Source: a candidate division FCPU426 bacterium (GTDB lineage: Bacteria; Oederibacteriota; PGYV01; Palsa-1178). From it: DNA of 64,000 nt. The first letter of the stretch is position 1. The number at the start of each line of letters is the position of its first letter. Shown piece by piece: positions 12,228 through 64,000 of the stretch. The stretch spans positions 352,001 to 416,000 of the forward strand of contig CAWIXE010000003.1 of assembly GCA_963840035.1 (NCBI GenBank), given 5' to 3'. The position numbers were made by a program, and so were the translations under genes. The notes beneath the pieces are model-generated. The model made no database searches, was not told the DNA's origin, and saw nothing but the letters and a program-made list of their open reading frames with translations.

Positions 12228-15200
12228 TTGGCGGCAAGGAAACTACATAGTTTCCAGAGATTGATTCTATTGCTATCTTTATTTACGGCTATTTTTCTGC
12301 CTGCTTACCTGAACGCGGGCGTTTTAGTCATGGAAAAATCGAGCACAAAGTTTATCGCCGCCATGGGCGAGACGGTAAATTACTGCATCACCATAAACCC
12401 CCAGTACGTCACCCCCAAAGCGGATATAATCTGGGTCATAGACCGCAGCGGGTCCATGTCGTACGGCATAGACAACATCCTTGCCAACATGCGCTATTTT
12501 ACCGAACAGTTAACCGGAAGGAAGATAGACTACAGGCAGGGGCTTGTAACTTTTGTCGACGGTTTTTATGACAATTACGGTTTTGCGGACAATGATGACA
12601 AATTTAAAAGCTGGCTCGCGGACATACCCGTGGGAGGCGGCATAGAGCCTGATCTTGAAGCGCTATATGAGGCAAATAATGTGCCGTGGAGGCCGGACGC
12701 TTCAAAGACCATGATACTTATCACTGACGAAGGCATTCCCTGCGCTGAGGCTGGCGGCGACCCGCTTTATGTCAGCCTAACCGCCAGCGACCTTTATTCG
12801 CAGGGTGTCATCATACACGCCATAACTTACAACCCTTCAATCGCCGGTTATGAGTCCTATAAGTGCAACCCGAAATTCCTGCCTCCTTTAGCGGGCGGCG
12901 TCTGGCTGGACTATAACACTCCGCCGTCCGGATGGAATGTATTCCTGCAGATATTAGGCGAAGCCATAGCCACGATGAATGACGTGAAAATAACGGACCC
13001 TGTGCCGCCGGATTTAATACCCGTGCCGGGAAGCGCGGGTACCGGGGTAATAACCGGCAATGAAATCGTATGGAACTTCACGCAGGTTGACAGGGGCGCG
13101 CCTTTCCAGGTGTGTTTTGACGCAGTGGTAAATACGCCTTTCTACAACACTGTCTCAAACACGGCTTACGGACAGGCCTCAGGCATAAGCAGGACAGCTT
13201 CAAACTCGGTTTTCATAAACATGGCGACATTTACCTCGACACCGACTTATACATGCACGCCGACATTTACTGCCACGCGCACATATTCAAATACTAAGAC
13301 GGCAACATCCACCAGGACGCCGAGCATGACCCGCACGCACACGCATACTCCGAGCGCGACAAAAACAATCACGGATACGGCCACACCGAGCGCTACAAGA
13401 ACCGGGACTAAGACCGTTACTGAAACGTGCTCGCCTTCTGATACGAGCACTGCCACGCCGACTGCCACCCAAAGCGCTACACAGACAATCACAAAGACAG
13501 CCACGCCGACATGTACTGATACTCCAACAGTGTCGCCCACATACACGGGGACAATAACGCGCACAGCAACACCGACTTCCACGCCGACTTATACACGGAC
13601 TGCTACAGGCACCTATACCATAACGGCTACGGGCACGCAGCAGGCGACATATACTGACACACCAACACCTACAGCCACGGCGACTAAGGATGTGGATCAT
13701 TACATTATCGGGGCGCCGGCAAGCGTTCCCGCGGGCGTGCCTTTTTACATAACAGTCACGGCAATTACAAGCACATGGTACGGCAGCCTCGTCGCGGATA
13801 ATTACGCGGGGACCGCTTTCTTCGCGACAAGTTCGCCGCTTTATTCGCTGCCTGCGAATTACACATATATACCGGCTTCTGATTATGGTTCGCATATTTT
13901 TCAGGTGACGCTGATGACGCCGGGGATGCAGTCGGTTACCGCCACTGATACAGTGGACGCGTCTGTCACGGGGCTGGCAAACATACTTGTGACATCGGGC
14001 AATGCCGCGTATTTCACCATAGACGCGCCGGCAACCGCGGTAGCGGGCGATGTCTTCTACATAACAGTCACGGCGAAGGACGCGTATAATAACGTAGTTA
14101 CCGGCTATACCGGCACCGCCGGGTTTGAATCCACGGACGCGCAGTGGGTATCCCCGGGAGACGTGCCGTTTTACGCCGCGGATCAGGGAAAAAAGATACT
14201 TGCGGTCACTATGAAGACTTCGGGCATACAAAAAATATACTGCGAAGACATCATGAACAGCGCCATAAACGGGACCAGCAACGATATCATAATAACGCAC
14301 TCGGTTATCTCGGGCTTTACAGTGTCGGCGCCGACCATAGTCAATACCGGCACGCAGTTTACCTATGTGGTAACCGCGCGCGACGCTTATAACAACGTAA
14401 TAGAAGACTATACAGGCACTGTTCACTTCACATCCACTGACGGCGGCGCAACACTTCCCGCAAATTATACATTCCTGCCGTCCGACTCGGGCTCCAGGAT
14501 ATTCACAGGCGCGCTTGCCGCAAACGGGACACAGTACATATCGGTTAATGACACCCTGCAGCCTTTAAGCGCCGGCACCAGCAACGCGATTAACGCTGTC
14601 ACGCCGCCCACGCAGTACAACAGGCCGCTGCTTTTAACTTCGTACCTTACGCAGCCAAACCACTACGAGTTCTGTTACATAAGGATTGACGACAGAAACT
14701 TTACATTTACCTCAACCGCCAACTATCTGGAGTATGATGTTTACGTCCCTGATTACAGTTCCAACTTCTACTGTTCCACGGAATTTCAGGATGGCGTTTA
14801 CCCGGGCGACGGTAATGACATGAGGGATTATGGACAGACAACTCAGGATTACATAAAGGACCAGAACGGCATAAGGATACACCCGTCCATGGACATATCC
14901 ATATTTGCCAAGGGAAAATGGTACCACAGGAAATTTGACGTAAGTTCGCTGCAGCCGACGGGATATTACAGCAACGGCTTCCTCTCGCAGGACACGGGTA
15001 ATATAGGATACAATGGTGCGCCTTCAAATAACGCGGGTACTTTCAACGCTTTTTTTAACAACATTGCCGTAAAAACATCCGGGGGAACTGTTGTGCATAA
15101 TGTCTTTTCCAACGACACCACGATGAAAATTGGCGGCGGCGTGGTGTACAGCGGCATGACAAACCCTTCCTGGCGGACAGACGCAACTTATCCGCTTGAT

Positions 15201-21200: not shown

Positions 21201-22640
21201 GACGGAACCGCCATAGTATCAATCTCCGGCGAGGTTGACTGGAGTTACAGGACTTATACGCTCGGCACGGGCTCGCATTTGATAAGGTGGATGTATTCTA
21301 AGAACGCGTCAATTACCGCGGGAAGCGACTGCGGCTGGGTGGACCAGGTTGTTTATAACAGGTACACGCCGACCGTAACAAATACGGTAACGAACTCGCC
21401 GACAATAACGGCGACATGGAGCCAGTCCGCCACGTTTACCTCAACCAGGACAGCATCACCAACAAGGACCGCGACTTCAACATTCACGGAAAGCCCGTTT
21501 GTAACCGCTACCCCGACATTCACAATTACGAATACGCATACTGTGACCCTCACGCCGCCGGGAACCGGCATGCTCTGGCAGCTTGCGGCAGCGGCGCCGT
21601 TTACGGGCAGGTTCGGCCACACCAGCGTGGTATTCAACAATAAGATGTGGGTTATTGGCGGTATTAACGGGTCTACTGTTTTAAATGATGTATATTCTTC
21701 AGCGGACGGGGCAACATGGACGCTTGTAACGGCATCAGCCCCTTTCCCGGCGCGTTACCTGCATACAAGCGTGGTATTCAATAATAAAATATGGGTCATC
21801 GGCGGCTACACCAATACAGTGCTTTTAAATGACGTGTGGTCATCGCCGGACGGCCTCAACTGGACGCTGGAAAATCCCGCGGCATCCTTCGCGGGCAGGT
21901 ACTGGCACTCGAGTTTTGTGCTGAACGGGAAAATGTGGGTAACCGGCGGCACAGGCGCAACAAATTACGGCGATGTGTGGTCATCTCCGGACGGCCTCAA
22001 CTGGACGCAGGAGACAGCGATGGCGTCTTTCGGACAGAGGTACGCGCACGCGTGCGTGGTCCATGAAGGAAAAGTCTTCCTTACAAACGGAACATCAGGT
22101 CTTTCATATAATGACGTATGGTCATCAAATGACGGAATAAACTGGACGCCGCTGACATCGGGTGCGCCTTATCCGGCAAGGTACGGGCATACGGTTATTT
22201 CTTTCGGCGGATATTTGTGGATGATCGGGGGCTACTCAACATCCGGTTTTGCAAATGATGTGTGGTCCTCGCAGGACGGGATTTCCTGGACTCAGGCGAC
22301 AGCGGCGGCGCCGTTCGCCATAAGGGCGTCGCATACGAGCCTTGTATTTGCCGGCAGGATATGGGCGCTGGGCGGTTACAGCGGATCAGCTTATCTGGGA
22401 GATGTGTGGCGCTCTCCTCCGGATACAAACCCTACAGCCACATTTACGCGCACTTATACGGCAACGCGTACATTTACGCCCACGTGCACATTTACAAGGA
22501 CCGATACACCCACGCCGGCGTCGCCCACAAATACCGGCACGGCCACAAGGACATCCACGGCCACTGAGTCTTCATCCGCCACGGAGCAGCCCCACATTTA
22601 CGGTTACGCAAACAGCTACAGCGACAGCTACGGCGACTAA
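12228..22640 (+). CDS. Giant secreted adhesin-like protein, N-terminal part (DUF11 with inserted VWA, Ig/invasin-like repeats, 6 PPC/DVUA0089-like repeats, 2 jelly-roll repeats, Kelch-like propeller, Thr linkers)
   Basis: Signal peptide; MIDAS DRSGS; D-x-YE-x-D...DxDWVxF...GTYYxKV x6; W-SS-x-DG-x-x-W propeller blades; last ~16 codons are out-of-register text after a frameshift near 22590. Confidence 0.85.
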   Translation: MAARKLHSFQRLILLLSLFTAIFLPAYLNAGVLVMEKSSTKFIAAMGETVNYCITINPQYVTPKADIIWVIDRSGSMSYGIDNILANMRYFTEQLTGRKIDYRQGLVTFVDGFYDNYGFADNDDKFKSWLADIPVGGGIEPDLEALYEANNVPWRPDASKTMILITDEGIPCAEAGGDPLYVSLTASDLYSQGVIIHAITYNPSIAGYESYKCNPKFLPPLAGGVWLDYNTPPSGWNVFLQILGEAIATMNDVKITDPVPPDLIPVPGSAGTGVITGNEIVWNFTQVDRGAPFQVCFDAVVNTPFYNTVSNTAYGQASGISRTASNSVFINMATFTSTPTYTCTPTFTATRTYSNTKTATSTRTPSMTRTHTHTPSATKTITDTATPSATRTGTKTVTETCSPSDTSTATPTATQSATQTITKTATPTCTDTPTVSPTYTGTITRTATPTSTPTYTRTATGTYTITATGTQQATYTDTPTPTATATKDVDHYIIGAPASVPAGVPFYITVTAITSTWYGSLVADNYAGTAFFATSSPLYSLPANYTYIPASDYGSHIFQVTLMTPGMQSVTATDTVDASVTGLANILVTSGNAAYFTIDAPATAVAGDVFYITVTAKDAYNNVVTGYTGTAGFESTDAQWVSPGDVPFYAADQGKKILAVTMKTSGIQKIYCEDIMNSAINGTSNDIIITHSVISGFTVSAPTIVNTGTQFTYVVTARDAYNNVIEDYTGTVHFTSTDGGATLPANYTFLPSDSGSRIFTGALAANGTQYISVNDTLQPLSAGTSNAINAVTPPTQYNRPLLLTSYLTQPNHYEFCYIRIDDRNFTFTSTANYLEYDVYVPDYSSNFYCSTEFQDGVYPGDGNDMRDYGQTTQDYIKDQNGIRIHPSMDISIFAKGKWYHRKFDVSSLQPTGYYSNGFLSQDTGNIGYNGAPSNNAGTFNAFFNNIAVKTSGGTVVHNVFSNDTTMKIGGGVVYSGMTNPSWRTDATYPLDNYVWIIDGWRGWVTPAAAITADGYQCATITAYVWAPNSGANTKVAYAMIDFKSDRPEDVIEPITVSLNTRAITDWNGNAFARIKSTKPGAANVTLSMGPYTRIVTVNFTAAPANKVVISPANVNTQTGVSSTLGIKITDVNGNFISDGRTINISSSSATMVFSADNGSTWTSTVSVTGTLSRSILVRDSASGTATVTASATGLAPGTATINVNNSPAVKLVIVPQNSASTAGASVAFTVQAKDVSNNNANSNAAVHLSSASTTMYFSSDAANWYQTLDVNLISGSLPVYYRETKAGANVTITAHDNAALLSDGKGYATTAVGAAAFLDATANIYAVTAGRWVTITASVTDAYGNPVANRTITFTPMVQGGKTQDARLNNAADMISVSGTTDAQGKLIAWFKTSTDVDGSMNYCVVNTAGLLGKTVTISASDTAGRLSFLPNPMSLGADKIGVLNINAKDANGYNAPAPAGHEPTHIYANVTSVLFSIDNGLNWYVSVTPTLNSSGAATVNVKTHNTGTYYIMARDLNAGAGHLSDGANTLNVSTGYFVSVAPSAAATAAAGSGVTVTARIVDQNGAFVAMQGVRVQFTTDNGFINPAEAYTDAAGMAQSLLTLSILSNIQHKVSVTISNPDDTKTSGTITSLPVVSYSITSPSQVYRGEPFWVTLRAKDANGIKVDNYAGEVTFTSNDPLAALPSNYIYQIGDAGVKLFQVSLNTNGVKNISAIQADSSSVSGTSQNILVLDPPTATYTSTPTYTPTFTSTATKTITQTITQTATPSVTPSVTQTVTGTVTQTITATITQTATQTVTPTITQTHSVSPTITATPTFTFTATETITQTMTGTFTNTPTFTWTPTATQTATDEDTATFTVTQTITQTQTPYESPTDTWSQTATPTETYTDTPDYSATPTQEDTLEPTQTWTETEVVTDTVTHTSTPTFTATKTNSPDWTATPSYTITDSPTMTATPTVTVTPIPQDIYENDDTYLNAKPIYSYIRQTHNIVPANDVDWMVFTLSSFAQVIIETSGVPADTQMWLYSAAGVPLTYLNYDDDSGSGAYSKIEAMLDAGTYYIKVQEFGQNDIVTQYFVDLTVIGTDVYENDNVYTSASTITNGETQNHSIYPANDTDWVKFDVAVTSVVTLQTSGDGYGDTVMYLYNSAGVPASYMTYDDNNGGVLWSKITATLGPGTYYVKINENGMNSQIGLYHLTLNMTQSTPTPTFTPLVGDSYENDDTYTNASEILSGVQQQHSIHTASDVDWVKFTIDANSVVTISTSGLSGDTQIYLYNSAGVPGTYYAYDDNGGIGFFSGMTRTLTPGVYYLKIQENGQNAVISSYYVSVDIGVITPTYTPTVVLGDSYEVDNTFNNAKVIDLGTTQAHSIHAMGDADWVKFTVTQESIITIETSGSLSDTEMWLYDNLMVPTTQLAYDNDSGSGLFSAITRQLVPGIYYIKVGEYGNNATIDNYNISVSALVITPTLTPTPAMADAYETDDLYTSATWLYEGADQEHSIHTNTDTDWVKFTIGTGATVVIETYGTAGDTIMSLYNSTDVPSTPIITSDGGGTGQFAKISYVLPAGTYYVKVQESGQNAVVGQYFIKLYVSQDTPTATATNTPASGDAYEYDGTYLTAKTITSGISQIHSIFPSGDSDWVKFDVTGPSTVTLETSGTTGGDTVLYLYNAAGAASGTSLAVNDDGGTGYWSKITYAITTPGTYYARVVEYSNYYTISSYYLSLTIVPQMSPTQTPYYSPTSTVTPSSTSTETEVYTPTATSTVTITINEAVDNSALVFTTAGNAVWAGITGFGYSDNDSAKSGAIGDNMQSYVQTTVAGPGLITFWWKVSSDAADTLTLYDGKNVIQSISGDVDWEQVSYAVPSGTHAIKWEYSKDASVSGGLDTAWLDMVEFTYMTPTDTPEMTATATPTFTVTPAPTISIPEAVDNFTLTYDTYGAARWFGESAVSYYGGDAAQSGAAGNSQYSYMETNVTGPGVFSFYWKVSSQSGGDYLLLYIDGTAIVSISGEVDWSYRTYTLGTGSHLIRWMYSKNASITAGSDCGWVDQVVYNRYTPTVTNTVTNSPTITATWSQSATFTSTRTASPTRTATSTFTESPFVTATPTFTITNTHTVTLTPPGTGMLWQLAAAAPFTGRFGHTSVVFNNKMWVIGGINGSTVLNDVYSSADGATWTLVTASAPFPARYLHTSVVFNNKIWVIGGYTNTVLLNDVWSSPDGLNWTLENPAASFAGRYWHSSFVLNGKMWVTGGTGATNYGDVWSSPDGLNWTQETAMASFGQRYAHACVVHEGKVFLTNGTSGLSYNDVWSSNDGINWTPLTSGAPYPARYGHTVISFGGYLWMIGGYSTSGFANDVWSSQDGISWTQATAAAPFAIRASHTSLVFAGRIWALGGYSGSAYLGDVWRSPPDTNPTATFTRTYTATRTFTPTCTFTRTDTPTPASPTNTGTATRTSTATESSSATEQPHIYGYANSYSDSYGD

Positions 22641-52850: not shown

Positions 52851-53105
52851 AATTCTGGATTCAAGATTCTGGATTTTGAATTGTATTTGTGAGAATTATA
52901 AAACATACCGTATATACAGGTTTTTTTGACGTCTGCATGCAAAATCCAAAATTTAGAATCCGGAATTGAGAATCAGCCCCCTATTAAAAGTTGACAAAAA
53001 ACTTCACGCCAGTTATAATGGTTAATAAGGACAATTCTAGATTCTGGATTCTAAATTCTAGATTGGTTGTATTAAGTACTTAATTTAGAATCCAGAATCT
53101 AGATT
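52851..53105. repeat. Two heptamer inverted-repeat elements (ATTCTGG family) bracketing a promoter
   Basis: Arms at 52851-52882/52943-52974 and 53033-53064/53082-53105. Confidence 0.75.
52991..53019 (+). promoter_or_regulatory. Sigma70-type promoter
   Basis: TTGACA-17 nt-TATAAT. Confidence 0.8.
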
Positions 53106-53120
53106 AAAACCGAGGTATAT

Positions 53121-55022
53121 TTGATGGCGAAGTTTTTACGTAAACTCAGCCTGGCTTTCATCATGTGCGTTATATTCTTTTCTGCGGCGCAGAACTTAAA
53201 CGCGGCTTGCAATCCTGTTATGGTAACATTGTGCGCGGCTGTGGATGACACCGCGATCATCTGGGTTAACTCCATGCAGGTAGGCTCCTTTACTTACGTA
53301 AACTGGAACCAGGCCGGTTATCCTAAATGTATTACATTTGCTGTTGACGATCCTAATTCAGCCCCGCCTGCGGATCCATGGGATGTCCCCATGTATGACG
53401 CGCCCTATGGCGCGAACATAGTCGCTATACAGGTGCAGAACACCAACTGCTGTGAGGTTTGGGGATCATGGTCCATGGACATACTCTGCGACACAGGCGC
53501 GCACGCTTACATGTCGTCTGACGACGGGGAAAACAGGATGTATAATAATTACGCCACGCCGGGACCGGCAAATACTCCGCCATACTGCCCTGAATTCTGC
53601 CTGACGCCGCCGCCAAATGACGGCGCTCTGACATGGTGGCATCATGACTATACACTGGCTAATCCATGGCCGACGCCCATTAAAGATACCGGGACCATAT
53701 GGGGAAAGCAGATATATCACCCGGGGACAGGGGCTCTGCTCAGGCCGCTTTCATACGATAGCAGCGGCACAGGGGAGCATCCTCCGGCGTACCTATACAT
53801 GAGGCAGGCGTATTACCTGACGCCGGCGCCGACACCATTGCCGCCGTTTTTTACCATTACAAAATCAGTCGTGGGCGATCCGCTTACTGTAAATACATCG
53901 AGCCAGGATATTACCTACATATTGCAGGTATGCAATACAGGGCAGCAGCCGGAATTGGGTAAATTGGTCGTAACAGACAGGCTTGATCCGGCTCTTGGTT
54001 TCGCAGGGTTGGTGGATGGAACGGGCAGCTGCGGCGAGGACTGGAAATTTGGGCCGAATTCTTGTGATAATAATCCAGCCCCGGGGTATATCAGGATTGA
54101 ATATCCAAGGGGTTTCCCAGGAGGCACTTGTTTAAATGTCACAATACGGGCACGCGACTGGTGGATCGGTCCGGACGATTTCTGCAAGGTAAGGTATAAT
54201 TACGCCGGCGTGCACTGGCCTTCAGGGGACTTTACGCCGAATATAACGCCGGATGCGGCTTCAAACACCGTGAACGTCACCATGTACTGCCCGGGGACGC
54301 CGACATTTACCCTGACTGTTTCGGAAACATGGACGCAGTCATATACGCGCACCATTACCATGACAAAAACGGCTACGCCGACAGTTACAATGACATCAAC
54401 CAGGACCAGGATACCTACATGGACTAACAGCCCGACAGAAGTTCCTACAGGCAGCACAATTACGGTTACTTTGACCAGGACTCTTTCAGCGACCCTTACA
54501 CCGACTATGTCATGGACCCCATCCGCAACGCCGACAGTTACCGTTACATACGTAAATATCATAGCGCTTGCCAAGTCCGAAGACTGCTGGGATATAAATT
54601 GTGAAGTGCCTCTGGGGGATACGGTTATATACTGCATAACATTTACGAACCTGCTTGACCAGCAGGCGTCTTTTACAATATGGGATACCATACCTGACGC
54701 CATGAATTTTGTTTCAGCGTCGGACGGAGGCCAGTTAATAACCTGGAACGCGGCCATAGTGCCGCCGAGGACCGCGCCGCTGAGGGGAATAGTATGGTCA
54801 TTGAAGGATGTGCCTCCCGTGTCGCAGGCGCCATATAACTGGGGCACAGTATGTTTTACTGTATGGGTGGCAAGGATAAGTTATGCGGGGCTTGATGAAA
54901 ACAGCTATAAATACGCCTATTATGATGATAAAAAGGAAAAAGTCACGGCGCAAAAATATTTTTCGCCGGCAAGGGATGAGGGATTGATCCGAGGCCCCGG
55001 AGGCGGAAGGGCAACCCCATAA
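53121..55022 (+). CDS. Secreted Cys-rich protein: N-terminal beta domain, one complete DUF11, Thr linker, C-terminal truncated DUF11
   Basis: Signal peptide; TITKS...VTDRL...YNYAG...ASNTVNV (complete); ALAKS...GDTVIYCITFTN...WDTIP...VCFTVWV (no final strands); start TTG 53121 or ATG 53124. Confidence 0.8.
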   Translation: MMAKFLRKLSLAFIMCVIFFSAAQNLNAACNPVMVTLCAAVDDTAIIWVNSMQVGSFTYVNWNQAGYPKCITFAVDDPNSAPPADPWDVPMYDAPYGANIVAIQVQNTNCCEVWGSWSMDILCDTGAHAYMSSDDGENRMYNNYATPGPANTPPYCPEFCLTPPPNDGALTWWHHDYTLANPWPTPIKDTGTIWGKQIYHPGTGALLRPLSYDSSGTGEHPPAYLYMRQAYYLTPAPTPLPPFFTITKSVVGDPLTVNTSSQDITYILQVCNTGQQPELGKLVVTDRLDPALGFAGLVDGTGSCGEDWKFGPNSCDNNPAPGYIRIEYPRGFPGGTCLNVTIRARDWWIGPDDFCKVRYNYAGVHWPSGDFTPNITPDAASNTVNVTMYCPGTPTFTLTVSETWTQSYTRTITMTKTATPTVTMTSTRTRIPTWTNSPTEVPTGSTITVTLTRTLSATLTPTMSWTPSATPTVTVTYVNIIALAKSEDCWDINCEVPLGDTVIYCITFTNLLDQQASFTIWDTIPDAMNFVSASDGGQLITWNAAIVPPRTAPLRGIVWSLKDVPPVSQAPYNWGTVCFTVWVARISYAGLDENSYKYAYYDDKKEKVTAQKYFSPARDEGLIRGPGGGRATP

Positions 55023-55025
55023 AAT

Positions 55026-55056
55026 AAAAAGGCGCGGCATAAAGCCGCGCCTTTTT
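55026..55056 (+). terminator. Intrinsic terminator
   Basis: A5-GGCGCGGC-ATAAA-GCCGCGCC-T5. Confidence 0.85.
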
Positions 55057-55399
55057 GTTTTATGGGGTTTGAAATAATTATTGCAGTATCCGACAGGATG
55101 CAGTCCTGGTACCATAAAAGCCGTAGTATAGTTTTCTTGCAGAGGCCGGATCATATCCGGCCAACAACCATTTTTATAATTGAAAATTGAAAATACTGAA
55201 TTGAAAATTTGTCTTTTAGTCCAATTCAGAACATACCTCTCCCAATAGCCGCCTTATAGTATAGAAAAACCAAAAATAAATCAATTTTCACTTGAATCAG
55301 TTCAAATTATTTTTCTAATATTCCATAAAAAGCAATAAAACGCTATAAAAATAAGGATAAAATACCGTATAAAATACTCGAAATAAGCCTGTTTCCGAA

Positions 55400-55428
55400 T
55401 TGACAAAATAGCTATCTGTTTGTATAAT
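55400..55428 (+). promoter_or_regulatory. Sigma70-type promoter for the 55590-64000 operon
   Basis: TTGACA-17 nt-TATAAT. Confidence 0.75.
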
Positions 55429-55589
55429 TAGTACTGGGAAATAGCTTAATTATATAGAGTTTTTTAGAATGAGGCAGAGGTCTCTAAATTATTATATCTC
55501 TGTCCTCGGAGTAGTGTAAGCATTTTTGATTTTATGTATTTTGTCAGTATCGAAGATAAGTAAAAAATTAAGTGAGGAGATGAGTTGAA

Positions 55590-56921
55590 ATGGAAAAGTT
55601 TTCCGCGAAATATAGTGTAATTCTGACAACAGTTTTAATAATATTTTTCGCGTCCGCGAATGTTTTTGCGGCAACTCTTTCCGTCTGCCAACCGTCGGGT
55701 TGCACATATAGCACAATAGCGGCAGCTTTAAACGCGGCTGCCGCGAGCGGAGATACGATCGTTATTTCCAGTAATATTTCTGAGGACTGCGCGATACCGA
55801 ACAATTTAAACAAAACTGTGGCGATTACATCCGATGGGACCAGAAGGACCTGGACAAACGCAGGCGGTTCGAATGTATCAATATCAAATATTGGCACATC
55901 GTGCAACCTGTCATTTTCAAACCTCGACATAGTAAATACCACTGGAAGCACAATGATGAACTTTACGAATTTCCAGCCCGGAACCACATTTAGTTTTATT
56001 AACTGTACCCTGAAGAATACAACACAGAGCGGAAGGCTTGTCGACCTGCAAAATGGAGGGTTCCTGAATTTTTACGAGTGCGAGCTTGTCGGAAACAACC
56101 TGACTTCGGAGGGGATACTGCTTGAATCCGGCGTGGGTTCGGGCAAAGGGCTGTATATGCAAAATTCCATAATAAGGGGCATATCAAACGGCAAAGCCCT
56201 GAATGACCAGTATGCCAGCGGCGCCAACGCGACACTCAGGAACTGCACCTTTGAGGGAAACAGCATCGCGATAGAAACCCAGGGCGCGCTTACGGTCCGA
56301 AACACACTTTTTATAAACAACACAAATGACTTAAATCTCACGAATATTAACGCCTGGGCTACCGCGGCGATGAACAGCGCGTACCAGTACTGCAGTTTCC
56401 ACGAACAGACCACAACGATATCGGACGGAGGAGCGCACGCCTGGACCGGTTATACGGGGAATATATTCGGCACTCCGAACACGATAGTACAGGATTATGT
56501 GAACCACAACCTGCACCTTGACTGCGGCGACACCGTCTATGCTGTGGATAAAGGCGCTAACATGTCCGCGTACTATACGGTGGACAAAGACTACATGCAG
56601 AGGCCGCAGGGAACCGCGTATGATATCGGAGCGTATGAGTGCCCGTCGCTTCAGATATCGAAGTCGGCAAATGTGTCCGCCGCGTACCTCGGTGATACGG
56701 TGACATACTGCATAACTTACACGAACAATTCCACGGATGACAAGGATACGGATATCTGGGACACGGTCCCGGGGAACATGGTGTTTTCTGGATGCGATAA
56801 TTCCTGCGACACGCAGGCGTACGGCATTTATAACGTGGTGCACTGGTACATAGCGCTCCCGCCGGGAGCGTATGGCACAGTGTGTTTTTACGCGAGGATA
56901 ACGGATTACGTAAGGCCTTAA
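55590..56921 (+). CDS. Secreted parallel beta-helix protein with choice-of-anchor-Q-like motif and C-terminal truncated DUF11
   Basis: YSTIAAALNAA..GDTIVI; AVDKG...RPQGTAYDIGAYE; QISKS...GDTVTYCITYTN...WDTVP...VCFYARITDYVRP*. Confidence 0.85.
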   Translation: MEKFSAKYSVILTTVLIIFFASANVFAATLSVCQPSGCTYSTIAAALNAAAASGDTIVISSNISEDCAIPNNLNKTVAITSDGTRRTWTNAGGSNVSISNIGTSCNLSFSNLDIVNTTGSTMMNFTNFQPGTTFSFINCTLKNTTQSGRLVDLQNGGFLNFYECELVGNNLTSEGILLESGVGSGKGLYMQNSIIRGISNGKALNDQYASGANATLRNCTFEGNSIAIETQGALTVRNTLFINNTNDLNLTNINAWATAAMNSAYQYCSFHEQTTTISDGGAHAWTGYTGNIFGTPNTIVQDYVNHNLHLDCGDTVYAVDKGANMSAYYTVDKDYMQRPQGTAYDIGAYECPSLQISKSANVSAAYLGDTVTYCITYTNNSTDDKDTDIWDTVPGNMVFSGCDNSCDTQAYGIYNVVHWYIALPPGAYGTVCFYARITDYVRP

Positions 56922-56951
56922 GGGCTAAATTTTTTTAAAAGGAGAACGCAT

Positions 56952-57683
56952 GTGAATGCAAGATGGGCGGCGGCAGTAAAAATCAAAACACATATTTATG
57001 TATTTATAATCATTCTGGCGATGCATTCTATTTCTTATGCTACTGCTTCGATTGTTAGTGTCACAACGAGCCCGAGCCCCGCGTGTGGGGCCGCTACGCA
57101 GACGATTAGTGTGACCGTTGTTTTTTCTGAAAATTCTGCGTGGCAGGCTGTTTATGGAGCGGTTGTTTTTTCTGCAGATGCTTCTTGGACTAGCTCAGAT
57201 ACTTGGGCGGTAGGAGGTACAGGATGCGACCCGTGCTGCGACGGGGCGCTTTGGGGAACTGCGGGGGGCACTGTTCCGCAGACTTTTACCTGGGCAGGTA
57301 ATGTAACAATACCCAGCGGGTCATTTACACGTATGCTTATAGCAACACATACTGGGACACAATACAATTGCGGCAGTGATGGTTCCGCCATGACGTGGAT
57401 TGTATTTTCGCCTTCATGCAGCCCCATCACATCAGTAAATAAATCAGCGGATAAAACATCCATGTATGTGGGAGATACTGTGTCGTTCTGTCTTACCACG
57501 ACAAATACCGGCGGGTCAAATTATACTTTCAATATGTGGGACACGGTGCCGGCAGGACTGACTTATCTGGACTGCAGCGATTCTTGCACGTATTCGGGAG
57601 GAGTCGTGTCCTGGACGATTACAAATCTCGCCGGCAGCAGTGCGGTGACAAGGTGTTTTCGGGCAACGGCTAATACCCCGTAG
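56952..57683 (+). CDS. Small secreted protein: Cys-containing N-terminal domain plus C-terminal truncated DUF11
   Basis: AGGAG RBS, signal peptide; SVNKS...GDTVSFCLTTTN...WDTVP...RCFRATANTP*. Confidence 0.85.
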   Translation: MNARWAAAVKIKTHIYVFIIILAMHSISYATASIVSVTTSPSPACGAATQTISVTVVFSENSAWQAVYGAVVFSADASWTSSDTWAVGGTGCDPCCDGALWGTAGGTVPQTFTWAGNVTIPSGSFTRMLIATHTGTQYNCGSDGSAMTWIVFSPSCSPITSVNKSADKTSMYVGDTVSFCLTTTNTGGSNYTFNMWDTVPAGLTYLDCSDSCTYSGGVVSWTITNLAGSSAVTRCFRATANTP

Positions 57684-57749
57684 TTTTATTTCTGGTTCGG
57701 ATTCTTTAATTGTAATGACGGCTGAATAAAATAAAAAAGGAGAGAGCTG

Positions 57750-60700
57750 ATGAATACAAACAGGCTAACCGCGGTAAAGAGCGGGATAATGCTGTTTGTA
57801 TTATTGTTTCTGATGCTGTTTCATGGCAGCGCGCTTTTTGGAGCGACCCTTGTTAGCTTCACATCAAACCCTTCTCCGGCGTGCGGCGCTGCAGGACAGA
57901 CTATCTCGCTTACCACGGTTGCAATAAGCGGTACATATACTACTATTTCGTACACTATAATGTTCTCGGCTGATACTACAGCGGGAAACGCAGGAGATGT
58001 ATATGTTGTTGGAACTAATTGCGCAAACGGCAATGCAGCTCTTGGAACTGAAAACGCTCCGGCGGTAAATATTACAAAAGTAGATACTGTGACTATACCT
58101 GCAGGAACATTTAATTACATAATAGTAACTTTAACTGATAATAATGGCAATGGCTGTTCCAATAAAGGGCAGATTGCGTTTACCACCGCATGCGGGCCGA
58201 CAAATACAACGACGGTTTCTCCTACTATCACACCTACGCCTACACCTACAAGGATATTTATCAGCAATACCGGATACGCGGACGGAAAAGCATCCAACAG
58301 CGTCAGTGTCGAGATCCTGCTTGTCGCCGGGCCGCCGACGAACACGCCTTCGATCACGCCGACGTATACCATAACGCAGACAGTGACGCCGACCGTCACG
58401 AGGACCATCACGCCGACCATCACGCTGACCGCGACAGATACATTTACCAGGACTATCACGCAGACTATTACGCAGACCAGCACGCAGACCGTTACACAGA
58501 CTACTACCCCGGTATTTTCCCTCACCATGACCATGACCGTTACCCAGACAGCCACGCAGACGGTGACCAGGACAATAACGCAGACGATAACGCAGACGAT
58601 AACACAGACGATAACACAGACGATAACGCAGACAATAACCGAGACTGTGACGCGGACCATATCTCCGACGTGGACCAACTCGCCGGATAACAGCATGACA
58701 TTTACACCGACGGCCACGCCGACTTCGTTCCCGGCATGTATTTTTTCGGATTATTTTAATAACGCATCATTTGACGCCTCAATATGGAACACCGCGAACG
58801 TCGGTGCCGGGTCCAACGGCAGCCAGGCGGAGTCGGGGAACCTTACCATTACTGCGCAGGGCGGGGACATTGCGGGTACGGCGGATTCGTTCTATTACAT
58901 TTATCAGAAGACCAGTTCGGCAAACCTCGACATAAGGTTCCGTGTCACTGCGATTGGCAGCCAGTGGAACTCAAGGGTAGGTATCATGATCAGGGAGTCA
59001 ACAGCTGCTAATTCGGCTTTTGCTTCCATAAACATCAATAATAACAGCCACGATGACATTTCTCAGCAAAGGGCCTCGACAGGCGCCGGTGTATCATCGA
59101 GCGACCACTATAACGGTGGCAACTACTTAAGGATGGTAAAGACCGGGAATCAGATAATAACCTATGATTCTCCTGACGGTATTACATGGAATATACAGCA
59201 GACATATAATTTCGCATCATTTGCAAGTGATTATACTGTGGGAATTGTTGCAACTTCAAACACGGGCAGCAATAACACCTTCAGCGGGCAGGATTTCCAT
59301 GTTCAGACTGGCGCCTGCGGAACCCCGACGTTTACTGCAACTCCTACAAACTCAAACACATATACAGTCACATATACGCGCACAAACACACCGACTATTA
59401 CCGTGACTTATTCCAGTACATATACAAGGACTATAACACCTTCAATAACCCCCACATTTACGATAACCCCGCGTACCATTGGTAATATCGCAAATACAAG
59501 GTTTGGCCAGTCAAATAACGTGCTTGTGGCGGTATTTACGCCGACAGGCGCAATAGCCACAAATACCTTTACTGCTACGCGCACATCCACACCCACAGGC
59601 ACGCCCACGGCGACAAGGACATATACTGCGTCAGTTACCCCTACAGGGGTGCAGAACGTGGGTAACTGGGATTACGGCCAATCCAACTTTGTTGGCCTCA
59701 TTATAGTAACACCTACATTCACGGCCACCATAACTGTTTCACCAACCGTAACACCCTCATTTACATTTACCTACACAATAACCAGGACACCAACCTTTAC
59801 AGTAACACAATCAGTTACGGTCAATAATACAAACACGGTAACTGTCACGGGGACGCCATCGGTTACTCAGACTTTGACGCCTACATATACAACTACCGTA
59901 ACGCAGACTGTGACCCCGACTATAACGCAGACTATGACCCAGTCTGTAACCAGGACTATAACCATTACTGTGACGCAGAGCGTAACGCAGACTGTAACCA
60001 CGACCATATCGCAGACTGTGACGCAGACGCTCACACAAACAGTGACACAGACAGTGTCGCAGACGGTAACTCAGACAGTGTCGCAGACAGTCACGCAAAC
60101 GGTTACGCCAACTACATCGCCGACTTATACGCGGACTATAACTTTGACCGCGACCCAGACCGTGACGCAGACCATGACCCAGACCGTTACGCAGACGTTG
60201 ACGCAGACTGTTACAACGACAATAACACAGACCGTCACACAGACGGCGACTCAGACTATAACTCAAACAGCGACACAGACGGCAACGCAGACCGTGACAC
60301 AGACCGCGACTCAGTCAATAACGCCTACGACATCGCCTACGTTTACCCAGACCGTCACACAGACAGTAACGCAGACAGTGACGCAGACAGTGACACAGAC
60401 AGTGACACAGACGCTGACGCAGACAGTAACTCAGACTGTGACACAGACGGTAACGCAGACGCTGACGCAGACAATAACACAGACGGTAACGCAGACGCTG
60501 ACGCAGACAATAACACAGACGGTAACGCAGACGCTGACGCAGACTGTGACGCAGACAGTAACGCAGACGCTGACACAGACAGTAACGCAGACGCTGACAC
60601 AGACAGTAACGCAGACTGTAACACAGACACTGACGCAGACGGTAACACAGACACTGACGCAGACGGTAACACAGACAGTGACGCAGACCGTATCGCAGAC

Positions 60701-63700
60701 AGTAACACAGACGCTGACGCAGACAGTAACACAGACAGTGACGCAGACAGTAACGCAGACAGTGACACAGACAGTAACGCAGACTGTGACTCAGACTGTA
60801 ACACAGACGCTGACGCAGACAATAACACAGACGCTGACACAAACAGTGACGCAGACAGTGACACAGACAGTGACACAGACGCTGACGCAGACAGTAACTC
60901 AGACTGTGACACAGACGGTAACGCAGACGCTGACGCAGACAATAACACAGACGGTAACGCAGACGCTGACGCAGACTGTGACGCAGACAGTAACGCAGAC
61001 GCTGACACAGACAGTAACGCAGACGCTGACACAGACAGTAACGCAGACTGTAACACAGACACTGACGCAGACGGTAACACAGACACTGACGCAGACGGTA
61101 ACACAGACAGTGACGCAGACCGTATCGCAGACAGTAACACAGACGCTGACGCAGACAGTAACACAGACAGTGACGCAGACAGTAACGCAGACAGTGACAC
61201 AGACAGTAACGCAGACTGTGACTCAGACTGTAACACAGACGCTGACGCAGACAATAACACAGACGCTGACACAAACAGTGACGCAGACAGTAACGCAGAC
61301 AGTGACACAGACAGTATCGCAGACAGTAACGCAGACGCTGACGCAGACAGTGACACAGACAGTGACGCAGACAGTAACACAGACAGTAACGCAGACAGTA
61401 ACTCAGACCGTAACACAGACACTGACACAGACGGTGACACAGACAGTAACGCAGACAGTGACGCAGACAGTATCGCAGACAATAACACAGACGCTGACAC
61501 AAACAGTGACGCAGACAGTAACGCAGACAGTGACACAGACAGTATCGCAGACAGTAACGCAGACGCTGACGCAGACAGTGACACAAACGGTAACGCAGAC
61601 AGTAACGCAAACAGTGACACAGACGGTAACGCAGACGCTGACGCAGACAGTGACGCAGACAGTGACGCAGACAGTATCGCAGACGGTAACACAGACGCTG
61701 ACGCAAACAGTGACACAAACTGTAACACAAACTGTAACGCAGACTGTTACACAAACAATAACACAAACAATAACACAAACAATAACACAAACAATAACAC
61801 AAACAATAACACAAACAATAACACAAACAGTGACTGAGACAGTAACTCAGACAGTGACACAGACAATAACGCAGACTGTATCTCAGACAGTAACACAGAC
61901 GTTGACGCAAACAGTAACACAGACTGTAACACAGACTGTATCGCAGACGGTGACACAGACTGTAACACAGACGCTGACTCAGACAGTGACACAAACTGTA
62001 ACACAAACGATAACGCAGACAGTGACACAGACAGTATCGCAGACGGTAACGCAGACTGTGACTCAAACTGTGACTCAAACTGTTACACAGACAATAACGC
62101 AAACATTGACACAGACTGTCACCCAGACTGTAACGCAAACTGTGACACAAACTGTATCGCAGACTGTAACGCAGACTGTGACTCAAACTGTTACACAGAC
62201 AGTGACACAGACAGTAACGCAAACATTGACCCAGACTGTCACGCAAACTGTATCACAGACAGTAACGCAAACGTTGACACAGACAGTGACGCAAACAATA
62301 ACACAAACAGTGACTGAGACGGTAACACAGACGCAGACACAGACAGTGACACAAACTGTAACACAAACGATAACGCAGACTGTGACACAGACAGTATCGC
62401 AGACGGTAACACAGACTGTGACACAGACAGTATCGCAGACGGTAACACAGACGGTAACACAGACTGTGACTCAAACTGTTACACAGACAGTGACTCAAAC
62501 TGTTACACAGACAGTGACTCAAACTGTTACACAGACAGTGACTCAAACTGTAACTCAAACAGTAACGGAGACAGTAACACAGACAGTGACGCAGACCGTT
62601 ACGCGAACAGTAACTGAGACAGTAACCCAGACTATGACACAGACAGTAACGCAGACAATTACACAAACAGTAACGCAAACGTTGACGCAGACAGTAACTG
62701 AGACAGTAACGCAGACTGTTACACAAACAGTGACACAAACAGTGACACAAACAGTGACACAAACAGTGACACAAACAGTGACGCAGACAGTGACGCAGAC
62801 AGTGACGCAAACAGTAACTGAGACAGTGACACAGACCGTTACGCGAACAGTAACTGAGACAGTAACCCAGACTATGACACAGACAGTAACGCAAACAGTG
62901 ACCCAGACAGTCACCCAGACTGTCACACAAACTGTATCACAGACAGTTACGCAGACGATAACTCAGACAGTAACTGAGACAGTAACACAAACGTTGACGC
63001 AGACAGTAACACAGACAGTGACGCAGACGGTGACGCAGACAGTGACGCAAACAGTAACTGAGACAGTGACACAGACCGTTACGCGAACAGTAACTGAGAC
63101 AGTAACCCAGACTATGACACAGACAGTAACGCAAACAGTGACCCAGACAGTCACCCAGACTGTCACCCAGACTGTCACCCAGACTGTCACCCAGACTGTC
63201 ACCCAGACTGTCACCCAGACTGTCACCCAGACTGTCACCCAGACTGTCACCCAGACTGTCACCCAGACTGTCACACAAACTGTATCACAGACAGTTACGC
63301 AGACGATAACTCAGACAGTAACTGAGACAGTAACACAAACGTTGACGCAGACAGTAACACAGACAGTGACGCAGACGGTGACGCAGACAGTGACGCAGAC
63401 AGTAACGCAGACAGTAACGCAGACAGTGACACAGACAGTGACGCAGACAGTGACACAGACAGTGACGCAGACAGTGACACAGACAGTGACGCAGACAGTA
63501 ACACAGACCGTTACTCAGACTGTAACTGAAACAGTGACACAGACAGTGACTCGGACAGTAACGCAGACAGTAACTGAGACAGTAACGCAGACAGTGACAC
63601 AGACAGTAACGCAGACCGTTACTCAAACAGTAACACAGACAGTGACGCAGACAATCACACTGACGGTGACACAAACAGTAACGCAGACAGTTACTCAAAC

Positions 63701-64000
63701 AGTAACACAGACAGTAACACAGACAGTGACACAAACAGTAACACAAACCGTTACTCAGACAGTAACTGAAACAGTGACACAGACCGTCACACAGACTGTA
63801 ACTGAGACAGTAACACAAACAGTAACGCAAACTGTAACAGAAACTATAACCCAGACCGTAACGCAGACCGTAACGCAGACCGTAACACAGACCGTAACAC
63901 AGACCGTAACTAAAACAGTCACGCAGACTGTAACTGAAACCATAACGCAGACGGTAACGCAGACCGTAACGCAGACAATGACACAGACCGTGACGCAAAC
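57750..64000 (+). CDS. Giant secreted scaffold/stalk protein (>2083 aa, runs off window; missing from ORF track): N-terminal domain, three DUF11-strand peptides, ConA-like lectin domain, QTVT repeat
   Basis: AAGGAG RBS, ATG 57750, signal peptide [31 protein letters not shown]; frame read open to 64000; [18 protein letters not shown]...GIMIRES...SPDGITW domain at ~58730-59320. Confidence 0.88.
59898..64000 (+). repeat. 12-bp coding minisatellite encoding (Q-T-V/L/I-T)n, over 300 units in window
   Basis: CAGACAGTRACR-type unit; nearly pure from ~60350; smaller block at ~58370-58660. Confidence 0.95.

Follow-up and report, generated by a model that had tools for sequence, protein, structure and literature searches.

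Truncated DUF11 domains and isolated hairpin peptides in an FCPU426 bacterium: a candidate natural catcher/tag scaffold

A 64,000-nucleotide stretch of DNA from a candidate division FCPU426 bacterium (GenBank assembly GCA_963840035.1, contig CAWIXE010000003.1, positions 352,001 to 416,000 of the forward strand; the window, G000:C3:352001-416000) encodes three proteins that end in an incomplete DUF11/CLIPPER domain, followed by a giant threonine-rich protein with three short peptides resembling the strands that those domains lack. The genome (G000) measures 3.46 Mb in three contigs and is 98% complete. Its GlyQ is most similar to records labelled uncultured Spirochaetia or bacterium (74-94% identity) and Ca. 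Goldbacteria/Goldiibacteriota (74-78%), after which identity falls to 60% or less, so that it probably belongs to the Goldbacteria lineage. The products of open reading frames (ORFs) 53121, 55590 and 56952 are named cargo 1, cargo 2 and cargo 3, and that of ORF 57750 the scaffold or carrier. A catcher is a C-terminal DUF11/CLIPPER domain that has the Lys and Asp and lacks the last two strands, and a tag is an isolated Asn-bearing two-strand hairpin peptide within a Thr-rich spacer. With a probability of roughly 0.68, judged from sequence comparison, the tags of the stalk protein complete the half-CLIPPER domains of the cargos, probably with an isopeptide seal, thereby displaying proteins that have no export or anchor domain of their own. 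The split-domain pairing is real across the lineage, and a natural catcher/tag scaffold is the reading that fits it best. The split anatomy is confirmed, and the scaffold interpretation is well supported by comparative genomics.

Split anatomy of the window genes

53121..55022, plus strand: cargo 1, 633 residues; signal-peptide-like start (by eye), complete DUF11, C-terminal catcher
53847..54290, plus strand: complete internal DUF11/CLIPPER-type domain of cargo 1 (K248, D286, N360; last strand from residue 380)
54558..54881, plus strand: catcher 1, truncated DUF11 (K485/D522) with seven predicted strands and no Asn strand
54882..55019, plus strand: C-terminal tail of cargo 1, 46 residues, no N-x-A or S-N-x-V
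55590..56921, plus strand: cargo 2, 443 residues; beta-helix-like N-terminal region (by eye), choice-of-anchor Q domain (residues 318-351), catcher; no C-terminal sorting domain (CTD)
56646..56918, plus strand: catcher 2 (K358/D391)
56952..57683, plus strand: cargo 3, 243 residues; N-terminal domain paralogous to the first domain of the scaffold, then catcher
57426..57680, plus strand: catcher 3 (K164/D197), matching Pfam DUF11 positions 3-86 of 114
57750..64000, plus strand: scaffold, 5' part of a 5,421-residue ORF that ends at G000:C3:426015, beyond the window
58251..58322, plus strand: tag 1 (N173), putative partner of cargo 3
58737..59315, plus strand: DUF1349-like domain between tags 1 and 2 (E 1.7e-4, under the cut-off)
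59472..59537, plus strand: tag 2 (N579), putative partner of cargo 2, by elimination
59646..59708, plus strand: tag 3 (N636), putative partner of cargo 1
59850..64000, plus strand: start of the Thr-rich stalk (about 4,400 residues in all), QTVT grading to ETAT

An earlier note, made from the DNA letters alone, had described three proteins ending in a DUF11 domain that keeps Lys and Asp but lacks the last strands, and a next gene holding three isolated Thr-flanked peptides. Both descriptions are confirmed at the residues listed above, as are the complete DUF11 domains with the motifs that it quoted, one within cargo 1 and one in ORF 12228 (see below). Cargo 1 consists of an N-terminal domain, the complete DUF11, a Thr-rich linker, the catcher and the 46-residue tail; it has no CTD, and its first domain has no Atlas match at 0.9 or above. 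The Pfam DUF11 (PF01345) match ends at position 59 of 114 in cargo 2 and at position 86 in cargo 3. PF01345 is above its cut-off in one of the three cargos and does not call cargo 1 at E<=0.01, and NCBIfam TIGR01451 is over its cut-off in all three. Each of the three catcher domains stops after the strand that precedes N-x-A and S-N-x-V in complete domains. The Asn of the penultimate strand is therefore not in the same chain, as the catchers either end there or continue into a tail free of the pattern. The earlier note had also stated that the cargos have neither a CTD nor another anchor. Scans of all three with NCBIfam and a CTD model found no C-terminal sorting domain. As a correction to the note, cargo 2 has a choice-of-anchor Q domain directly preceding its catcher. 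The N-terminal domain of cargo 3 shares 31% identity (E 4e-15) with the first domain of the scaffold.

The residues expected to take part in bond formation are retained. Among 60 catchers, Lys is conserved in 59 and Asp in all 60, and four Cys are nearly invariant. The Lys-Asp spacing is 33-35 residues in 59/59, vs 33 in the CLIPPER structure 9IFR, in which Lys715 is bonded to Asn806, with Asp748 as the presumed catalyst and one further strand after the Asn (PMC12617251). An AlphaFold2 model of catcher 1 aligns with 9IFR over 89 residues (Z 8.4, root-mean-square deviation 2.3), covering residues 21-114 of its 123-residue chain, and the model ends short of the end of 9IFR. If the numbering of 9IFR starts at the 19-residue tag of the vector, as we assume, position 114 is residue 802, four before Asn806. 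The fold match has a Foldseek E of 0.03, and a sequence search of the PDB found nothing below E 0.1.

A C-terminal tail of up to about 55 residues follows the catcher domain in 52 of the 60, and 35 of these 52 tails carry an acidic-aromatic-aromatic-Ala motif. The two-strand pattern N-x-A / S-N-x-V occurs in 0/52 tails. The tail is missing in eight of the 60, two of the three window cargos included, and in five of the seven catchers of this genome. It could be a placeholder, a pro-piece or a quality-control signal. In frame after the stop codon of cargo 3, an aromatic-rich stretch (57684-57722) starts like the tail of the orthologue in genome G002, and is possibly the remnant of a recently lost cargo 3 tail.

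The scaffold ORF extends 10 kb past the window end and is 44% Thr overall. Its C-terminus is a FlgD-Ig / type IX secretion system (T9SS) type A-like CTD, detected by TIGR04183 (30.9 bits, cut-off 23) and PF18962 (29.2, cut-off 27). The three tags share the form N-x-A/G-x6-S-N-x-V, each inside a Thr-rich spacer. Along the stalk of about 4,400 residues the repeat units shift from QTVT to ETAT, becoming strongly acidic near the CTD (through G000:C3:416000-425000).

Complete domains from elsewhere provide a measure of what the catchers lack. A search of 1.84 billion representatives gave only long tandem adhesins among its best 150 matches, and these were used as controls. In these 150 unrelated proteins, 1,487 of 1,808 internal domains have N-x-A/G no more than 22 residues past the catcher break point; only seven of 1,815 domains are C-terminal, about three of which appear truncated. 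Three long tandem DUF11 adhesins (P0067, P0013, P0109) have a last domain that is apparently truncated at the catcher break point. A profile of the missing strands built from these adhesins ranks the window tags 11, 60 and 450 of 119,756, and another tag of this genome 501. The resemblance between the peptides and the missing strands claimed in the earlier note is thus real but modest, the adhesin profile performing moderately and a local profile missing the tags altogether (see below).

Pairing of catchers and tags in this genome and its relatives

An iterated hidden Markov model (HMM) finds 57 DUF11-like stretches in this genome. Seven are truncated C-terminal domains: three in the window, three on contig C2 and one on contig C1, the last being an orphan paralogue of cargo 2. 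An eighth candidate at C3:265958 was dropped, as it is a complete domain divided by a frameshift (C3:265958/267787). The frameshift in this region (G000:C3:265958-268767) falls between the last two DUF11 strands, so that the product resembles a catcher. Six of the seven catchers lie upstream of tag carriers, with catcher-to-tag counts of 3:3, 1:1, 1:1 and 1:1, and each catcher gene on C2 is followed, at a distance of 37-62 bp, by the gene of a Thr-rich, single-tag protein that has a CTD. Short islands interrupt the linker in 18 of 122 Thr-linker ORFs of the genome, and the tag pattern is present in four ORFs, all adjoining catchers. A regular expression combined with a Thr-flank filter matches exactly six sites in 11,507 ORFs, all downstream of catchers, a result that is partly circular because the expression was drawn from the tags. 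A first tag HMM recovered essentially one tag class. With a profile of 35 tags from relatives, the six tags of this genome rank 1-6 of 1,651,009 positions, scoring 49.0-17.3 against 15.3 for the next best. The Thr linker of a 1,858-residue CTD protein on contig C1 (G000:C1:573593-579169) contains two similar islands (residues 355-373 and 573-594) that are not tags, and no catcher lies nearby.

For comparison with relatives, 60 regions were taken, mostly around the best matches to a catcher profile, which matches 36 of 41 genomes and also recognizes complete domains. The resulting tally holds 81 catchers in 69 clusters, this genome included, and is exclusive of unrelated, mostly cyanobacterial loci and of small loci repeating larger ones. 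A Thr-rich ORF follows the catcher cluster in 55 of the 69; seven clusters have no neighbour in the available DNA, and the other seven are followed by an unrelated gene. Tag and catcher numbers are equal in 43 of the 55, a match that is partly circular because the tag profile was trained on some of the tallied loci. The carrier CTD is detected in 33 of the 55, lies in unsequenced or gapped DNA in 20 and is missed in two. None of the 81 catchers matches the CTD model, although the sensitivity of this result is limited because the same model, built for the tally, missed the CTD of the giant ORF that NCBIfam detects. Among 61 control Thr-rich CTD proteins, one contains a tag.

The reverse search with the tag alignment gives 56 matches in 20 of the 41 genomes. 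Ten of the matches lie outside the alignment; eight of these are directly behind a catcher, one is at a contig edge and one is behind an unrelated gene. Four genomes of the same order (G015, G019, G022 and G023) have catchers and no tag match. Two of them show a divergent island by eye (L161, L173), and the best loci of the other two are at contig edges or have a doubtful island. No above-threshold tag was found at the unrelated, mostly cyanobacterial loci, and a supposed tag at L050 was discarded as a false positive within the first domain of its own protein. In all 12 tags outside the training set, scored with that column removed, Asn occupies the reactive position.

The number and class of tags follow those of the catchers. 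The locus of G002 has three catchers and three tags and that of G012 two and two. In G011, two catchers stand with two tags, and cargo 3 and tag 1 are both missing. Because relatives without cargo 3 are also without tag 1 (L041, L045), tag 1 appears to pair with cargo 3. A class-specific pairing of cargo 1 with tag 3, cargo 2 with tag 2 and cargo 3 with tag 1 is inferred. A nearest-neighbour matching placed all three window catchers with tag 3 and was set aside as uninformative, because the 1:1 loci lack the other two tag classes. In four genomes (G003, G005, G006, G007), the two catchers are matched by a single scaffold tag and a further tag that lies on the second cargo. A tag is present in four of the 60 catcher proteins, each encoded by the middle gene of a three-gene locus (L036:3957-5333, L037:7200-8429, L038:1732-2916 and L042:1340-2611). 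Since both elements reside on one middle protein, a two-step chain from cargo through adaptor to scaffold is predicted. A tagged CTD carrier without an adjacent catcher is encoded at L156:2920-5922; its tag class adjoins a catcher elsewhere in the same genome (L165 of G013), which suggests pairing in trans.

Catcher clades correspond to tag classes, in trees with few columns and many open forks. Catcher and tag similarities correlate with r 0.83 across 29 unambiguous pairs. For the 21 pairs with a sequenced CTD, catcher similarity gives r 0.89 vs the tag and 0.34 vs the carrier CTD, and none of 57 tag-sized CTD windows reaches the tag value, with r at most 0.43. This co-variation suggests co-evolution and is not proof of it, because the gap can be widened by kinship, by physical proximity and by shuffling of CTDs. 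The genomic test proposed in the earlier note, whether truncated DUF11 genes and tag-bearing genes occur together, thus has a clearly positive outcome: the two kinds of gene are repeatedly adjacent, mostly agree in number, are present or absent together and co-vary in class, and their Lys, Asp and Asn are retained.

Proposed assembly, rival explanations and known systems

The proposed assembly would begin with Sec export of all partners across the inner membrane, their signal peptides having been assigned by eye. The tag hairpin would then slot in along the catcher's open edge, which would bring the first Asn of the tag next to the catcher Lys and Asp, and a Lys-Asn isopeptide bond would form unaided, by analogy with the K715-N806 bond of CLIPPER helped by D748. 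The carrier CTD would take the complex out through a T9SS-like machine, or the cargo would be captured outside after another route. The stalk would hold the cargo at a distance from the cell, and in four relatives the middle proteins that carry both elements would extend the assembly to a chain of two steps. Binding between catcher and tag is judged very probable, and a covalent bond, given binding, likely. The broader proposal of a natural covalent scaffoldin and sorting system, in which the half-CLIPPER is an anchor signal by which enzymes and binding proteins without a CTD travel on, or are caught by, glycoprotein stalks exported by T9SS, mutually orthogonal classes place the cargo and tag-and-catcher adaptors allow branching, is tentative and stands at a little under an even chance.

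Several observations weigh against the catcher/tag scaffold. AlphaFold2 predicts catcher 1 alone as seven strands at a predicted local distance difference test (pLDDT) value of 90. The catcher may be stable unpartnered, because of this value and the four nearly invariant Cys. In the structural comparison, 9IFR is tied with unrelated immunoglobulin (Ig)-like folds, including integrin and adaptin domains. When the natural protein of L038, in which a tag is joined to a catcher by a 60-residue linker, was modelled with AlphaFold2, the tag was left undocked at pLDDT below 50 and part of the linker formed a hairpin in its stead; this result is weak because the pair is non-cognate and the tag is covered by only 4 of 44 alignment rows. 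An HMM built on the last two strands of 62 local complete domains did not recover the tags, its matches being Thr-rich noise, and the adhesin-derived profile ranks two Cys-type tags only 8,459 and 46,029 of 119,756. In the tally, 11 of the 55 clusters preceding a Thr-rich ORF have no above-threshold tag and one has a surplus tag. By eye, nine of the 11 have an Asn-bearing island at the expected place, one is doubtful and one is an assembly gap, and the genome with the surplus tag (L069) encodes a cargo 2 homologue elsewhere. The seven clusters with unrelated neighbours are orphan catchers. Furthermore, the loci were selected as best catcher matches, and kin are not independent. Among the points that would count against its own proposal, the earlier note had named truncated domains that fold stably alone and are common in genomes without tag peptides. 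This is found in part, in the confident prediction of the truncated domain alone and in the seven of 69 clusters with an unrelated neighbour.

These observations leave room for a truncated domain that is self-sufficient through disulfides or its own tail, with the hairpins as a hinge, a protease site or a site for a third protein and the adjacency due to co-duplication. The confident fold, the conserved Cys, the tail of most catchers, the orphan catchers and the undocked tag all suit this explanation. However, it is rather improbable, as it leaves unexplained the equal counts at multi-catcher loci, the loss of cargo 3 together with tag 1, the confinement of tags to the neighbours of catchers and a co-variation of catcher and tag far above that of catcher and CTD; completion by the domain's own tail does not fit the tailless catchers. 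Less probable still, the halves would be functionless relics of complete DUF11 domains broken across adjacent ORFs by gene fission or assembly error. The frameshift-split domain at C3:265958/267787 is one such case in this genome, and the paralogous first domains of cargo 3 and the scaffold would fit. Against this, the tags lie 170-700 residues inside their carriers, after signal-like starts and domains of the carriers' own, and 81 proteins from different families and orders, their frames intact, share one break point, so that conservation has largely refuted it already. A closer competitor, itself unlikely, accepts the binding and denies the bond. Strand complementation would be non-covalent, as in chaperone-usher pili, with Lys, Asp and Asn kept for packing or by descent. 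All co-occurrence results are explained equally well in this way, the bond is reported missing in some DUF11 domains (PMC12617251), and oligomers of BsaA N35A, which lack the bond, are described as stable in sodium dodecyl sulphate until heated (10.1101/2024.11.04.621531). In contrast, the near-invariance of three catalytic positions that are split over two genes, and the Asn found at the reactive position in every out-of-training tag, argue for a covalently sealed catcher/tag scaffold.

The catcher/tag scaffold differs from each known family considered in a defining feature. It shares with CLIPPER/DUF11 (PF01345, 9IFR) the family, the Lys-Asp spacing and the model alignment. In the cited account, however, CLIPPER domains are complete intramolecular stalk repeats (PMC12617251, whose main text does not use the word truncated), whereas here the Asn strand and the last strand are on another protein. 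In BsaA of Clostridium perfringens (10.1101/2024.11.04.621531) and the Sulfolobus thread protein Saci_0406 (PMC11607397), a strand of one chain completes the sheet of another and is locked by an autocatalytic intermolecular isopeptide bond, a lock that is only inferred here. As described there, these are homopolymers of other folds with one N-terminal donor strand, in contrast to the internal two-strand hairpin donor, heteromeric partners and several tags per carrier proposed here. Donor and acceptor do not recur on one repeating subunit: the window cargos carry no tag, and no subunit type of an open-ended fibre was seen. Chaperone-usher pili and the Pam pili of the candidate phyla radiation also complete a truncated Ig-like acceptor in trans, but with a single donor strand, chaperones and filaments, and the word isopeptide does not appear in the source (PMC13278184).

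SpyTag/SpyCatcher is an engineered split-isopeptide pair. In such pairs, as here, a large catcher and a short tag each hold part of the reactive residues. The engineered pairs are laboratory splits, in the cited paper of CnaB domains (PMC5487036), whereas the present split is natural, affects a probable CnaA-type domain and occurs in at least six sequence classes. In the cellulosome, modules encoded by separate genes dock through cohesin-dockerin pairs at several sites along the scaffoldin, a long surface protein. Multi-site carriers recall this organization, and in relatives some cargos or carriers have glycoside hydrolase family 5 (GH5) or carbohydrate-binding module family 3 (CBM3) domains. 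However, here the cargo bears the large domain and the scaffold the short peptide, there are one to three sites, the link is probably covalent, and the host is a diderm with T9SS-like export. No cohesin or dockerin match was found with Pfam or NCBIfam in the scanned proteins, and cohesins are only weak fold neighbours. The domain and its chemistry are known, but in open-access full text no description was found of a natural split DUF11, of a tag-bearing scaffold or of the heteromeric multi-site arrangement. If the catcher/tag scaffold is true, the split-isopeptide device of protein engineers has a counterpart that evolved in bacteria, which use it to assemble defined surface complexes of several proteins with no sortase, chaperone or cohesin-dockerin pair. 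Proteins without a CTD would gain a further way of arriving at, or remaining on, the surface of T9SS-like bacteria, and a ready collection of candidate orthogonal pairs would become available, its catchers 85-110 residues long and its tags, of about 20 residues, lying naturally inside the chain.

Export, cargo function and neighbouring features

A T9SS-like export route is plausible in this genome because of 39 PorV/PorQ-family matches, 27 of them over the cut-off, and a SprA-like frame of 2,177 residues (C2:376275-379652; E 5e-21, under the cut-off). These PorV/PorQ-family and SprA-like matches lie outside Bacteroidota. As to function, the scans gave no assignment for the window cargos. The 32 catcher proteins scanned from other loci include one with GH5 and one with CBM3, and CBM3-like carriers are also present among relatives, which together suggest binding or breakdown of polysaccharide. 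The lineage has been tied to cellulose degradation (PMC7031533). The GH5 cellulase-family protein (L067:3298-4941, E 9e-32) ends in a catcher and is encoded beside a tagged CTD carrier. A Vps10-like propeller protein (L051:1557-4235) has the same catcher class.

Further features of the window are the following.

52991..53019, plus strand: perfect (12/12) sigma-70 consensus site upstream of cargo 1; consensus match only
55026..55056, no strand assigned: terminator-like hairpin ending the cargo 1 unit; listed on the minus strand, with T runs on both sides
55400..55428, plus strand: second perfect sigma-70 consensus site, preceding the genes of cargo 2, cargo 3 and the scaffold
12228..13220, plus strand: complete DUF11 (K37, D257, N311) interrupted by a vWA domain (Pfam VWA, residues 66-201)

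The earlier note had presented the cargo genes as consecutive. Their order stands, but ORF 53121 appears to be a separate transcription unit, because of the terminator-like site at 55026-55056 and the sigma-70 consensus sites at 52991 and 55400. In ORF 12228, the S-N-x-V strand starts at residue 324, and the vWA domain is inserted in the DUF11 loop between Lys and Asp; similar insertions occur in other DUF11 domains of this genome. ORFs 12228 (3,470 residues, no CTD) and 22342 (660 residues, with a CTD) overlap in different frames at 22262-22640 and look like one gene split by a frameshift.

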